Positions 36,479 to 46,723 are shown, numbered from the stretch's first letter. The stretch is 64,000 nucleotides of DNA from a virus (IMGVR_UViG_3300028797_000009:1-64000); one strand, 5' to 3'. Notes: generated by a model from the sequence alone, not told the origin. Made by a program: numbers and translations.

Positions 36479-37348
36479 ATGAAAAAGGAAAAATATCTAG
36501 CAATTCTAGGCAAAGTTGAAGAGTTAGAAATGGCTCTCAATGGGAATGGAGGAGGTAATCCTAATCACGACGAATTAGGAAGGTTTACTACTGGTCCTGG
36601 TGGTAAAGTTGAAAAAACATCTGGCAAAGGTGAGTTTACTTTGAGTAAAGACGCTCAAAAAGTTTTTGACGAGGTTGATGATTGGACGGATGGTGCTTAT
36701 AAAAAGGATTTGAAGAAAATCTATGACGAGTTTAGTGAACTTGGTGTAGATGTTGATAAAATCAAGTTCGAAACGAATACCAATAAACTGCCAGGTAGTA
36801 TGGGGGATTATATTAAAGTACATAAAAATTTAGGGGGGTGTGCTACTACCAAGAAAAATCTCGAAGCGGTTATCTGGCTAAATAGAGATGACCAAGAAGA
36901 CTATATTCCTATGAGCGGTAGGAAAAAGTATCTCGAAGGCAAAGATGTTAAAGACCAGCCACATGGTGTTGATAGTACTGCTCTGGGGATTATAAGACAT
37001 GAATTAGGGCATATAGTGGCGGCTACTGTGTATATGAATAGTCGTGGTCGAAAAGCAACAGGTGGCTCGTTGAATATGGGTGCCGTGAGGATTGATGCTA
37101 ATCAAAGATTTAAGAAGATATTTGGTAATAATTACGATTATAACAAACTAAAAATGTCTAGGTATGGTTTGACTAACCACGGAGAAGCAATAGCCGAAGC
37201 GTTTTCTAATCCAGATTTTTCGGAGGATACAAGGAAGATTTATGATTATTACAAAAAGGAGTTGTCGAAAATTAAGAGCAAAAATGCTATTGAGAAAGAT
37301 TCTGAATGGATTATTCTTTGTGATGGGTATCCAAAGGACAGAGAATGA
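36479..37348 (+). CDS. Putative head-packaged effector: Gly-rich N-terminal motif plus HExxH zinc-metallopeptidase-like domain
   Basis: 289 aa. N-terminus LAILGKVEELEMALNGNGGGNPNHDELGRFTTGPGGKVEKTSGKG is a variant of the motif shared with 37631, 42929 and 44480. C-terminal region GIIRHELGHIVAA contains HExxH. Confidence 0.5.
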   Translation: MKKEKYLAILGKVEELEMALNGNGGGNPNHDELGRFTTGPGGKVEKTSGKGEFTLSKDAQKVFDEVDDWTDGAYKKDLKKIYDEFSELGVDVDKIKFETNTNKLPGSMGDYIKVHKNLGGCATTKKNLEAVIWLNRDDQEDYIPMSGRKKYLEGKDVKDQPHGVDSTALGIIRHELGHIVAATVYMNSRGRKATGGSLNMGAVRIDANQRFKKIFGNNYDYNKLKMSRYGLTNHGEAIAEAFSNPDFSEDTRKIYDYYKKELSKIKSKNAIEKDSEWIILCDGYPKDRE

Positions 37349-37650
37349 TAGTATTCTATACAGCGTCATGTGAGGGGTGTTCTGGTAATAGAGCATTGGC
37401 AAATATGAAGGTTCGCTGTGAAAAAGCAGGTCTAAAATTCCAAGAGAGGCGAACAATCTTCTTTTATGTGTTTGAAAATGAGGCAAATGAGATAATGGAA
37501 AAGTCTGGGGTAAAACTACCTTTCTTCTATGGCACAGAATCGGGGAATGTTTTAGTAGGGAATTCGTTTACTCCACTTGATGATATAGATAAACTAATTG
37601 ATGCTGAATTAGAAGCACAGAAAGGCAAAGATGAAGAAACAGGTCTATGA
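37345..37650 (+). CDS. thioredoxin/glutaredoxin-like CxxC protein
   Basis: 101 aa. VFYTASCEGCSGN (CxxC at the start of helix 1) and KLPFFYGTESGNVLVG (the cis-Pro and GG region of glutaredoxin-like folds). Confidence 0.4.
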   Translation: MIVFYTASCEGCSGNRALANMKVRCEKAGLKFQERRTIFFYVFENEANEIMEKSGVKLPFFYGTESGNVLVGNSFTPLDDIDKLIDAELEAQKGKDEETGL

Positions 37651-44341: not shown

Positions 44342-44502
44342 TGGATAAAAAGAAACTAAAAAGACAATATCTTAAAGAGAAGATGAAGTTCAATCTTGCT
44401 AAAGCGAATGATGAGATGGTCGGGAATTTTATGTCTTTTGAGGACTATGTTCAGGCGTGTGGTTACTATTATGTAGAGGGTGAAGATGAAGAAAAATCTT
44501 AA
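44341..44502 (+). CDS. small hypothetical protein
   Basis: 53 aa (below cutoff): MDKKKLKRQYLKEKMKFNLAKANDEMVGNFMSFEDYVQACGYYYVEGEDEEKS; ATGG overlap with the upstream stop. Confidence 0.3.
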   Translation: MDKKKLKRQYLKEKMKFNLAKANDEMVGNFMSFEDYVQACGYYYVEGEDEEKS

Positions 44503-46723
44503 TGAAGCAATTGAAAAAATCTCGTATCTGGAAGCAGTATTTAATGGTGGTCCAGGTAGCGGTAATTTTGCCCACGCTGGTAGGAAGGGTTTAGTAGGTG
44601 GTTCTACTAAAAAAGGAGAAAGCGTTTCGGAACCTACGGATTTGAAGGTGGTTATCGCTGGGAAGGAGATGTCTTCTAGTGAGGCAAAAGAGTATCTTGA
44701 AAATAATAAAGATTTAGAGGTTTTAGATAGGATTAATAGTAAATTAGGGGATTTGAAAGAGTTAGAAAAATCTGTACTTCTAGATAAAGGCTGGGTTCCC
44801 GTTGAAGAAGATGGTAAGATTTGTGGCGAGTTTAATGATAAGATAAACCGTCATAAATTTGCACTTGGGAAAGACGATGAGCGTGTGATGAATAATGGTA
44901 AACGCTATCTAGAAGATAATAACGATGAATATTATGTTTCTAAGCCAAGCGACATTGATGGAGTGGCAATTTATACGACCACGGATAATGAATCTGCTCT
45001 TGACTATGCTGATGGGGATGAATCGAGAATTTGTAAATTGATTGTTGATAAATCGAATTTTATTTCGCAGGAGAAATTAAATGAGATTAGAAAACGATTA
45101 AGGAGCAAAGCAGATAATAATAAATTGAAGTATGCTCTTAGAAAGGTTGAGGGGAAGCGCCCTTATTGCCCTGTAAAAGATACTATTCTAGCAGGTATGT
45201 ATGGATATGATGGGATTATTCGATTGGACGCAAATGAATATATCGTAATAAATCCAGAAAGGTTGTCTTTGGATAAAACAAATTTGTCGAAGAGAGCAAA
45301 CGAACTTATATTAAAAATTAACGGGCTTGGTTGCTATAATAAAAACAAGGAAATAAAAAAGATGAAACTGACTAGAGAACAATATAACTTCGTAAAACAA
45401 AAACTTGAAGAACTAGAAAAAGAGATTAATGGCGGTAAGGGTTCGGGGAACTTTGGGCACTCTGGGCGACCTGGTTATGTAGGAGGAAGTGGAAAAGGTG
45501 GTTTATCGTCTGGCAAAAAAGATGGTGGTTCGTCTGAAAGTGAAATTATGCGTAAAACTGCCAAAGATGTGGAAGAAGCCGCTGCTTCTAATCGAGCCGT
45601 AGAGAAGGAAGCCTCTAAATTAGGTATGACTGCCGGTGAAACTGCTGATGGTCGTAAATATATCAATAAGGATAGTAGAGTTGGTGTTCCTGGCGATATG
45701 GACCCTTCGGATATTAAGACCGTTCCTAAACTTGCCCAAAATTCAGAACAGGCGAAGATTGAAAATGAGTTCGCTAAGAATTGGGAAGATGAGGGTAGGC
45801 GAGAAGAGGCTCTTAAAAAGATTTCAGAAATGGAGCCATTTAAGTCTGGGACTGTCGAAACTGATGCGATTAAGCAACTAGACCCGAATTGGGGAGATGA
45901 TGGGAGATTGAAAGAACTCCAAAAGAAAAAAGAAGCAGGTGATATTTCTGATTCTGAAAACAATGAGTTAAATGGCTATTTGACTTATAGACAGGAGAAT
46001 AATACTCTTCTTCATCAGACTGCGAATGTTCTCGCAAAGGAGATGTTAAAACGTAAGTTAATGGCTAATCCAGATGCCGTTTTGTTAGTTACAAGCGGAG
46101 GTTGTGCGAGTGGAAAAGGTTTCTTCTTGGAAAACACAGATGCTATTGGTAGGGAAGTAGATAGGCCGTGGGGAAAGCTGAAAATTGAAGATATGACAAA
46201 CGGCTCGGCTAAAAAGTTGATTGATAGCGTACTTGGAAATAAAAATCTTGTTGTATGGGATGCCGCTGGCGACCAAAACTCTTCTGAGTTAAATTGGCTT
46301 GCTAATTTTGGACGAAATATGACCGTTGTCCATACGGTAGGTGATGCTCAGGCAAATGCGGCAAATATTAAGAGTGGTTTGGTAAGTAGGGCGCTTCAAA
46401 AAGGTCGTATGGTGGATACTACGGTATATGCCGAATCATATTCTAAGGGTAATGAAAATACTAGTAAGTTTTATAGGAAAAACAAAAATAATTCCAAGAT
46501 TCAATTCCTTAAAGTAGAGAATCTTGGTGCTGGAAAGCCTGTTACGGTAATGCCATTCACGCAAAGGACTAAATATGATAAATCGAGTTATTCTCCAAGT
46601 GATGCTAAAAATACCGTTAAGGAGAATTTGAGTAATCTTAAACCGTCAGATAAGGTTTCCGAAGAAACAAAAAATAGCATCTATAAAGGGGCAACCTTTA
46701 TTGAAAATATGAAGAAAAAATAA
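44480..46723 (+). CDS. Putative head-packaged effector with two copies of the Gly-rich motif and a C-terminal P-loop (kinase/zeta-toxin-like?) domain
   Basis: 747 aa. Motif copy 1 (aa 14-50): AIEKISYLEAVFNGGPGSGNFAHAGRKGLVGGS. Copy 2 (aa ~300-340): KLEELEKEINGGKGSGNFGHSGRPGYVGGSGKGG. C-terminal LLVTSGGCASGKGFFLE is Walker-A-like, followed by VVWDAAGD (Walker-B-like). Confidence 0.5.
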   Translation: MKMKKNLNEAIEKISYLEAVFNGGPGSGNFAHAGRKGLVGGSTKKGESVSEPTDLKVVIAGKEMSSSEAKEYLENNKDLEVLDRINSKLGDLKELEKSVLLDKGWVPVEEDGKICGEFNDKINRHKFALGKDDERVMNNGKRYLEDNNDEYYVSKPSDIDGVAIYTTTDNESALDYADGDESRICKLIVDKSNFISQEKLNEIRKRLRSKADNNKLKYALRKVEGKRPYCPVKDTILAGMYGYDGIIRLDANEYIVINPERLSLDKTNLSKRANELILKINGLGCYNKNKEIKKMKLTREQYNFVKQKLEELEKEINGGKGSGNFGHSGRPGYVGGSGKGGLSSGKKDGGSSESEIMRKTAKDVEEAAASNRAVEKEASKLGMTAGETADGRKYINKDSRVGVPGDMDPSDIKTVPKLAQNSEQAKIENEFAKNWEDEGRREEALKKISEMEPFKSGTVETDAIKQLDPNWGDDGRLKELQKKKEAGDISDSENNELNGYLTYRQENNTLLHQTANVLAKEMLKRKLMANPDAVLLVTSGGCASGKGFFLENTDAIGREVDRPWGKLKIEDMTNGSAKKLIDSVLGNKNLVVWDAAGDQNSSELNWLANFGRNMTVVHTVGDAQANAANIKSGLVSRALQKGRMVDTTVYAESYSKGNENTSKFYRKNKNNSKIQFLKVENLGAGKPVTVMPFTQRTKYDKSSYSPSDAKNTVKENLSNLKPSDKVSEETKNSIYKGATFIENMKKK

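Follow-up and report, generated by a model that had tools for sequence, protein, structure and literature searches.

A conserved glycine-rich element preceding diverse effector modules beside the portal–MuF gene of an uncultured phage

What is a short, nearly identical glycine-rich peptide doing in front of a series of unrelated proteins encoded next to the portal gene of a phage? The locus raising this question is the segment from 36479 to 46723 of IMGVR_UViG_3300028797_000009:1-64000, a stretch of viral DNA of 64,000 nucleotides (nt) that was analyzed as a whole (hereinafter the window). Four open reading frames (ORFs; 36479-37348, 37631-38254, 42929-44341 and 44480-46723) are present in this segment and carry between them five copies of an element consisting of a helix and a Gly-rich core, which flank a gene coding for a fused portal–MuF protein. 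Enzymes that are packaged in the head and injected, such as T4 Alt, the P1 Dar proteins, the MuF toxins and the polyvalent proteins, serve phages as a first line of counter-defence; except in T4 and a handful of model phages, we know of no account of how such enzymes are selected for packaging or of how giant multi-enzyme proteins are matured into working parts. A near-invariant peptide placed before every module in thousands of proteins provides a mutable handle on this question, and also marks module boundaries for annotation and predicts processing sites. Our analysis indicates that the element is real, widespread and apparently unnamed, within a kind of system that is already known, and that its 20-residue peptide, for which we found no description, probably serves head-carried enzymes as a tag or cutting site.

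The glycine-rich element in the window

The core of the element comes in two versions. A six-frame regular-expression scan of the 64 kb recovered three A-type cores (GGKGSGNFGHAGRPGKRGGS, 37694-37753; GGPGSGNFAHAGRKGLVGGS, 44546-44605; GGKGSGNFGHSGRPGYVGGS, 45431-45490), described by the pattern GG(K/P)GSGNF(G/A)H(A/S)GR(P/K)G..GGS, and two B-type cores (GGGNPNHDELGRFTTGPGG, 36554-36588; KGNPYHDKIGRFTW, 43010-43044), described by GNP(N/Y)HD..GRFT, with no further core of either type anywhere in the window. With back-translated DNA patterns the same 3 A-type and 2 B-type copies were found, against 0.00 expected from 100 dinucleotide-preserving shuffles. Each copy is preceded by a segment of ~20 amino acids (aa), which is helical in the AlphaFold2 models; in the two units modeled, an N-terminal helix with a predicted local distance difference test score (pLDDT) of ~57-64 leads into a core predicted to be disordered (pLDDT <50) and then into a confidently folded module. 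Thus, the scan, the shuffles and the models of two units bear out the basic claim of the first-pass annotation, namely that four proteins share a Gly-rich motif behind a short helix in five copies.

The three A-type copies display 75-85% identity as protein and only 60-65% as DNA, and, where their residues are identical, the codons differ in 9/15, 14/17 and 9/15 cases. Being alike as peptides and largely different at synonymous sites, they bear the mark of purifying selection on the peptide rather than of a DNA repeat; a repeat or a recent duplication is ruled out by the same figures.

The first-pass annotation did not recognize the element as a named domain, and this stands: the motif region yielded no match in Pfam, PHROGs or NCBIfam or in sequence searches of the PDB, and a profile search of the PDB was empty at E <= 10. 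The concern that it might prove to be a collagen-like repeat or some other characterized family likewise found no support, there being no match to a curated family, and Pfam Collagen matching no window protein at E <= 0.1 and not figuring among the 25 families listed for 61 multi-copy proteins discussed below. Indeed, a collagen-like repeat can be rejected on the sequence itself: the Gly-X-Y register is limited to five fixed triplets, in which X and Y are conserved as well, and the B-type lacks the periodicity. An AT-hook or other mode of DNA binding via the GRP tripeptide was considered and dropped, since GC-rich lineages have neutral or acidic flanks. An exact-string search for the motif returned 0 papers, and no description was found in the literature on polyvalent proteins, MuF toxins, polymorphic toxins and NAD–ADP-ribose systems, or by topic; subscription journals were largely outside the coverage of these searches, such that an earlier description may exist.

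Distribution, modules and fusion states

At E <= 1e-3, an exhaustive profile search with the A-type element matched 5,435 cluster representatives, of which 1,132 also pass E <= 1e-10. (An earlier word-index search gave only proteins of <=93 aa, many of them fragments; the domain architectures presented here are taken from the exhaustive search.) The 150 best matches measure 419-3,154 aa and hold 2-10 copies each (3-10 in the very top ones, of 500-3,154 aa); they supply the 589 copies (98 N-terminal and 491 internal) on which our conservation figures are based. The spacing between copies is domain-sized (median 227 aa, 5-95% range 136-505). Half of the best-matching proteins start with a copy, and in 95% of them the last copy has 140 aa or more behind it; thus, the element precedes modules and almost never ends a protein. 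The initial view of an N-terminal routing signal needs revision in the light of these observations: 491/589 copies are internal, and copies stand before every module of giant polyvalent proteins and also directly after portal and MuF domains, which need no capsid targeting, so that a junction or processing site fits better than a pure routing signal.

The A-type consensus reads GGxGSG(N/H)FGHxGRPGx(V/I)GGS and is followed by a short flexible linker of Ser, Gly, Ala and Pro; that of the B-type reads GNP(Y/N)HDxxG(R/K)FT. About 12 of the 20 core residues are near-invariant, including the H, the R and two S, and Gly opens each of five successive triplets (GNF GHA GRP GxV GGS). Even the positions outside the search pattern (G-3, G-2, S1, G14, G15 and S16) are ~100% conserved in the 589 copies, and the core is the same whether a copy is N-terminal or internal and whether the lineage is AT-rich or GC-rich. 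The treatment of the A- and B-types as variants of a single element is justified by their joint presence in single proteins (in L005 and L007) and by P0286, an orthologue of the 37631 product in which a B-type core takes the place of the A-type core.

The modules thus introduced form a varied collection. In 61 multi-copy proteins the attached domains include ADPrib_exo_Tox, ART-PolyVal, Phage_Mu_F, GNAT, Zeta_toxin, NUDIX, topoisomerase IB, Tpt1 and RadC; peptidase domains are also attached, and ADP-ribosyltransferases (ARTs) are the commonest module. The earlier picture of a diverse enzyme cargo beside portal and MuF genes holds well beyond the window, as the same grammar recurs in dozens of other viral contigs and the repertoire of ARTs, zeta kinases, NUDIX, GNAT and peptidase domains matches that of known head-packaged polyvalent and MuF-fused effectors (PMC5512222, PMC5576092). 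Large IMG/VR ORFs with an internal copy are fusions of the form Phage_portal_3 - (NUDIX) - motif - Zeta/ART/Ntox50. B-type junctions follow the portal domain in the genome of a spring-water myovirus (MW202897.1; L158 5001-5045), whose portal ORF runs on for ~270 aa, and in the archaeal Nitrososphaera provirus Pro-Nvie1 (L157, FR725450.1, 5001-5048), where the next, overlapping gene is RelA/SpoT-like. A widespread family of DRAT-like ARTs of 229-241 aa bears an A-type leader (e.g., L030 9941-10666 and P0321), with 106 member sequences in one cluster. In the species-representative bacterial genomes of GTDB, the strict A-type pattern is rare (29 stretches, mostly in metagenome-assembled genomes of Clostridia/Lachnospiraceae), which may be the reason that the motif escaped notice. 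In GenBank, the short A-type query gave no match, possibly through low-complexity filtering, so that its absence from isolates is not thereby established, and the B-type query gave only three weak matches, two of them in annotated portal proteins.

The four cargo genes of the window all lie on the plus strand. The first, 36479-37348 (289 aa), codes for an N-terminal helix, a B-type core and a metallopeptidase-like module with an HExxH motif. Its match to the Pfam ATLF (anthrax-lethal-factor-type) model (E 7.6e-4, 19.7 bits) is below the curated cut-off of 27.4 and that to NCBIfam M6 is weak (0.016); HELGH and a downstream GEAIAEAF are readable in the sequence. In the second, 37631-38254 (207 aa), a helix at aa 3-21 and an A-type core precede an alpha/beta module, which AlphaFold2 models confidently and which has no fold match among PDB structures; the family conserves a basic C-terminal tail (K.KG.RA.ER), and its member P0300 is devoid of the Gly-rich core altogether. 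The third, 42929-44341 (470 aa), overlaps the end of the portal–MuF gene by 38 nt and possibly starts at 42947, a relative in L001 being called at 464 aa. Behind its helix and B-type core it carries a C-terminal ART-like module, in which the R, STS-like and QxE-LLP motifs can be read as TRR, FTSTC and QHEFLLP. The profile matches are weak (Pfam ADPrib_exo_Tox, E 0.012; PHROG 3895 ART toxin, 1.5e-4), as are those to leader-bearing ART modules (BLASTP 0.007; hhalign E 0.0033, probability 9.8%, in an alignment spanning the STS and ExE regions); this module is probably an ART, an assignment that is not firm.

Alone among the four, ORF 44480-46723 (747 aa) displays a two-unit architecture, with two unrelated effector modules in one protein, the other three being single-module. 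Its likely start is the ATG at 44486, and an identical database protein of 745 aa exists (P0226). The first unit (44480-45361) comprises a helix, an A-type core and a module of ~240 aa with no family match in Pfam or PHROGs. The second (45362-46723), which begins at an internal Met-Lys, comprises a helix, an A-type core and a P-loop module bearing TSGGCASGKGF and WDAAGDQ, of which GGCxxGKG and WDxAGDQ are invariant. The AlphaFold2 model of this unit (mean pLDDT 78; helix at 5-23; residues 23-57 below 50) retrieves zeta_1 of N. gonorrhoeae with Foldseek (6eph/6epi/6epg; prob 1.0, E 1.3e-6, 335 aligned columns, with a template-modeling score of only 0.39-0.48), while the Pfam Zeta_toxin model gives no match to it; as modeled, it is a zeta-toxin/PezT kinase at the level of the fold only. 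The downstream domains described in the first-pass annotation are borne out in part: the P-loop module has the zeta-toxin fold, and the HExxH and ART-like modules have weak matches.

The carrier gene (39895-42966, plus strand; 1023 aa) sits between two pairs of cargo genes. Its product combines a portal part (aa ~1-480), a MuF-like region (aa ~514-853), of which HPRCFC is the hallmark, and a C-terminal region that matches ParB_N weakly (Pfam Phage_portal 4.8e-14 and ParB_N 0.049; PHROG portal 1.7e-19 and head morphogenesis 0.0033). None of the four cargo proteins has a match to Phage_Mu_F or to a hidden Markov model (HMM) of the MuF cluster, the MuF-like region being found in the separate portal fusion. 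Between the portal and MuF parts of the window carrier lies an acidic Gly-rich spacer (aa ~440-520) in place of the motif. It is at this point that relatives insert up to three motif-flanked modules, and the portal–MuF homologues P0106, P0225, P0169, P0114, L006 and L008 bear such modules in two places, behind the portal part and behind the end of MuF; at the latter the junction reads ...HPxCxC..KLVFKN..TLNGG-core.

The modules of the window recur in several fusion states. The 36479 peptidase module is internal, between an A-type and a B-type core, in L005 (L005_6057) and also occurs inside P0106, P0225, P0150 and P0169; the 37631 module stands alone in L005, is C-terminal in a three-unit protein of L007 and occurs twice in P0105. 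Modules of these two kinds are accordingly met in the multi-module proteins P0105 (925 aa), P0106 (1,619 aa), P0169 (1,482 aa) and P0225 (1,519 aa). The two-unit fusion of ORF 44480 is kept in its orthologues P0227 and P0229, while its second unit is a separate gene of 455-465 aa in P0228, P0230, P0231 and P0233, starting at the Met that is internal to the window ORF. P0045 looks like the product of an internal deletion from the core to the end of an ART module. Taken together, these arrangements show that each module evolves together with its cassette as one unit, which is deployed as a separate gene, in head-to-tail fusions of up to 10 copies or appended to a portal or MuF carrier, and that the single-module cargo genes here and the giant polyvalent or portal-fused proteins elsewhere are one system in different states of fusion.

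The genomic setting was surveyed within 10 kb on either side of the motif in 79 IMG/VR loci, 32 of which have full flanks. The commonest neighbors are TerL (47 of the 79 loci), MuF (42), a DUF2213/head-maturation protease (38), a capsid protein (28), a cement protein (25) and a neck protein (20). The typical order is TerL - portal - (leader genes) - MuF - (leader genes) - protease - capsid; as many as five leader-bearing genes stand in a row in the stretch from MuF to the protease. The window itself derives from an uncultured phage of ~37% G+C that is present on metagenome contigs of up to 85.7 kb; megablast and tblastn searches with the window proteins gave no match among GenBank phages. Its large terminase subunit, TerL (33360-34781, plus strand; Pfam Terminase_3 3.9e-8; PHROG 2, 2e-31), is encoded upstream of the cargo genes and clusters with the TerL of 46 motif-bearing IMG/VR loci (HMM E 3.8e-146). 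Together with the portal–MuF gene it adjoins the cargo genes, and the same gene order is found in related contigs; no major capsid protein or prohead protease was recognized in the 64 kb. The label of head-morphogenesis region given to this locus can therefore be kept in part, as judged from the genes, on the strength of TerL and the portal–MuF gene.

Several other features of the window merit mention. Directly upstream of the first cargo gene, 36035-36454 (plus strand) codes for a 139-aa protein, the C-terminal part of which resembles the glycyl-radical C-terminus of the anaerobic ribonucleotide reductase NrdD (PF13597, E 7.3e-8, aa 82-113; PHROG 487) and which looks like a "spare part" protein of the GrcA/YfiD type. 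Between the first two cargo genes lies a 101-aa ORF (37345-37650, plus strand) with a CEGC (CxxC) motif and without a family match, which keeps the same position in a related contig (L159 5658-6014). A YodL-like domain protein (34901-35185, plus strand; PF14191, E 3.7e-13) belongs to a class counted among the polyvalent protein domains of conjugative elements by Iyer et al. 2017 (PMC5512222). Four tRNA genes (Pro-TGG, Leu-TAG, Asn-GTT and Trp-CCA; 30658-30973, plus strand) lie just upstream of the packaging module. A tail-fibre-like protein of 1351 aa (48273-52328, plus strand) contains an internally duplicated block of ~400 aa, 3 copies of the repeat VNNATLTIQKNG(T/S)TV.TFTANASSN.TANIT and a Gly run near its C-terminus. 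The GC skew of the plus strand is strongly positive (+0.26 to +0.46) over 4000-46000, which holds the early and packaging genes, and falls to ~0.06-0.18 across the tail region (46000-64000).

What the element may do

We tentatively favor, at somewhat less than even chances, the interpretation that the element is a leader or junction cassette of head-carried effector modules, with the core acting as a processing site at which the module is cut loose from its carrier and perhaps doubling as a tag for packaging. Under this proposal, the core would be recognized by a maturation protease, encoded by the phage or by the host, that cuts the polyprotein or pro-protein during or after head assembly, such that each enzyme is released from whatever carries it—the portal, MuF, a preceding module or the short N-terminal helix—and could then exit the capsid with the DNA. 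In the stand-alone proteins, the helix and core might double as a packaging tag that is removed later, in the manner of the T4 capsid-targeting sequence. The set delivered from the window would comprise a zincin-like peptidase, an ART-like enzyme, a zeta-type kinase and a pair of uncharacterized modules, and the fused and unfused arrangements of these genes would yield the same final products. A processing role is the most economical one because modules attached to portal or MuF need no targeting and because the internal copies are as conserved as the terminal ones. Moreover, a dodecameric portal with 500-1,600 extra residues on each subunit would be hard to picture working uncleaved, and the predicted disorder of the core between a helix and a folded module would suit a protease site.

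Several observations weigh against this proposal. The searches of the window and of the neighborhoods assigned no protease or other partner for the cleavage. In the window, there is no match to DUF2213, an HK97-type capsid protein or a protease other than the 36479 cargo peptidase; further, DUF2213 is missing from 11/32 full-flank loci, and the 36479-type peptidase module is present in only 3/79 loci and ~14 of the 150 top proteins. DUF2213 and the 36479 peptidase are thereby both excluded as a universal partner or processing enzyme, and no single protease family can explain a motif that is identical across lineages. The capsid proteins of these loci lack the motif, which is therefore not a general prohead-protease site. 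The window carrier (39895-42966) has no copy, its portal and MuF parts being joined without one. Cleavage would remove only ~45 residues from the stand-alone proteins, and by itself leaves the retention of their leader unexplained. Nor is the helix special to stand-alone genes, a possibility ruled out by the equally amphipathic segments upstream of internal copies (no difference from N-terminal ones in hydrophobic moment or Gly/Pro content; p = 0.46 and 0.56). Furthermore, a leader-only ORF of 45 aa (P0010, syntenic with window ORF 37631), in which a helix and an A-type core are followed by a stop, is found on three contigs (e.g., L159 6001-6138; NCBI QWCI01000020.1). Finally, the genes of the leader-bearing DRAT-like ARTs have a RecE-like exonuclease gene on one side and a Gam-like gene on the other; they lie close to replication genes and outside the head module.

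A bolder version of the same idea would have the 20-residue core and its helix constitute a universal, portable "load-and-release" cassette of tailed phages, whereby anything placed behind it is packaged, cut free and injected, through a shared mechanism that might be a conserved partner (e.g., MuF as receptor or protease) or self-processing. We regard this as possible and rather doubtful. If true, it would explain the maturation of polyvalent proteins and provide a programmable tag for packaging foreign proteins in capsids; were the motif portable, it could serve to load selected proteins into phage particles.

The main rival, which we consider unlikely, is that the core is not cut at all and instead serves as a docking peptide, binding a conserved internal component of the head (MuF, the portal, the scaffold or the inner surface of the capsid) and tethering the module in the procapsid, like the cargo-loading peptides of encapsulins; multiple copies would then amount to multivalent anchoring. 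The retained leader of the stand-alone proteins, the persistence of leader-only ORFs and the B-type copies that stand at the extreme N-terminus without a helix are all readily accommodated by such a role, as is the short, Gly-rich and disordered nature of the core, which it shares with peptides of this kind. MuF would be the best candidate for a receptor, being the most consistently linked protein (<=10 kb from the motif in 25/32 full-flank loci, and fused to the portal in the window). However, some copies come after portal or MuF domains, which are part of the head in any case, and the internal copies are as strictly conserved as the N-terminal ones, even though one tag per polypeptide should do. 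Moreover, the core is identical while portal families (PF04860 versus PF06381) and capsid types vary with the lineage, and tethered enzymes would still need to be released for injection.

It is improbable that the element is a partner-less junction or hinge that merely marks module boundaries, easing the exchange of cassettes (cf. VENN and DPxGL) and furnishing flexible joints for threading through the portal and tail. Its strict placement at module boundaries, the wide shuffling of modules among stand-alone, fused and carrier-attached states, the low-complexity linker after the core and the five Gly triplets, which suggest an extended conformation, would all agree with a hinge. Yet a hinge would not keep ~12/20 residues near-invariant, including the H, the R and two S, across AT-rich and GC-rich lineages; copies with 60-65% DNA identity are a poor substrate for homologous recombination, and Pfam Collagen is absent from the families listed for the window proteins and the 61 multi-copy proteins.

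More improbable still is a role outside the head, with the motif as a regulatory element common in late-gene effectors, such as a degron, an auto-inhibitory or modification site (e.g., for Arg ADP-ribosylation) or a site for a host factor. This idea draws on the DRAT-like ART family, with its 229-aa leader-bearing members encoded between the RecE-like and Gam-like genes, on the prevalence of ARTs among the attached modules and on the invariance of the core Arg. Against it stand the many proteins in which the motif is covalently linked to portal or MuF domains and the strong enrichment of head-module neighbors; gene location is in itself weak evidence, as T4 too encodes some of its packaged proteins outside its head genes (PMC5512222).

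Least probable is an intrinsic chemistry of the core with no phage-specific partner, either self-processing by an N-to-O acyl shift at Gly-Ser helped by the His or a ligand-binding mini-motif (a phosphate or metal loop of the GxGxxG type, which GSGNFG fits): a universal or absent partner would most easily explain a core that is identical despite differing head-protein families and differing or unidentifiable proteases, and invariant Ser, His and Arg do lie in a Gly-rich frame, but known autoproteolytic Gly-Ser sites require a folded, strained domain whereas this core is modeled as disordered, the B-type replaces the A-type with neither the Gly-X-Y frame nor its Ser residues, and a net charge of about zero or below in GC-rich lineages argues against DNA binding.

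Comparison with known systems

Short peptides on unrelated proteins have precedents in several delivery and compartment systems. The cargo-loading peptides of encapsulins are short, Gly-rich, disordered, usually C-terminal and single-copy, and dock unrelated enzymes in a shell of the HK97 fold. Our element is comparable in its Gly-rich disorder on unrelated enzymes and differs in consensus; binding would here be an analogy only. The pre-toxin junction motifs VENN of CdiA and DPxGL of Rhs proteins, the latter also a cleavage site, provide a second parallel (PMC3482391). They, like the phage element, are short conserved peptides placed where a constant delivery part gives way to a variable toxin cassette. 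Unlike them, the phage element recurs ahead of every module and also opens stand-alone genes, and the sequences and delivery systems are different.

The capsid-targeting sequence of T4 is a short amphipathic N-terminal leader that targets diverse proteins to the prohead core and is removed by the gp21 prohead protease, which cleaves at L/I-x-E; one of the packaged proteins is an ART, injected along with the DNA. This sequence and the gp21 cleavage of internal proteins and Alt have been reviewed (PMC9958956, PMC9026906). The two systems resemble each other in having a short amphipathic N-terminal leader on a diverse cargo, in our case a predicted one that includes a probable ART. They display no sequence similarity, and the T4 leader is not reiterated between domains or placed after portal domains; moreover, no T4-type protease or scaffold core was detected in the window, and the T4 leader of ~10 aa ending in L/I-x-E is not matched, though our element may be its functional analogue.

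Closer to the present case are the MuF polymorphic toxins (Jamet et al. 2017, PMC5576092; Zhang et al. 2012, PMC3482391; and Bxa, PMC11699363), in which variable toxin domains are likewise borne by a head-morphogenesis carrier encoded among head-module genes; none of the three papers mentions the motif. MuF is a common neighbor of motif genes, as noted above, and some motif proteins contain Phage_Mu_F. In contrast, the window cargo is separately encoded behind a short leader and lacks a MuF domain, MuF being fused to the portal; none of the four proteins is a MuF toxin. No immunity genes were identified, an observation that does not extend to the small downstream ORFs (e.g., 46739-46921).

The nearest relatives are the polyvalent proteins. 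Iyer, Burroughs, Anand, de Souza and Aravind (2017; PMC5512222) predicted that these need to be processed into individual units and ascribed the processing to an MPTase domain; a text search of that paper found no mention of a conserved Gly-rich junction or cleavage site, and MPTase-PolyVal is not among the top families of the 61 motif-rich proteins. The likeness lies in the combination of many effector domains (ART, peptidase, NUDIX and RadC, among others) in large products of late or packaging genes that are predicted to be packaged and injected, and the best matches to our motif are of this kind. ORF 44480 fits the architectural definition of a polyvalent protein, whereas each of the other three window ORFs holds a single module drawn from that pool. 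The 36479 and 37631 modules have homologues inside multi-module proteins, and ART, Zeta, NUDIX and ART-PolyVal domains from the polyvalent repertoire are found in motif-bearing proteins.

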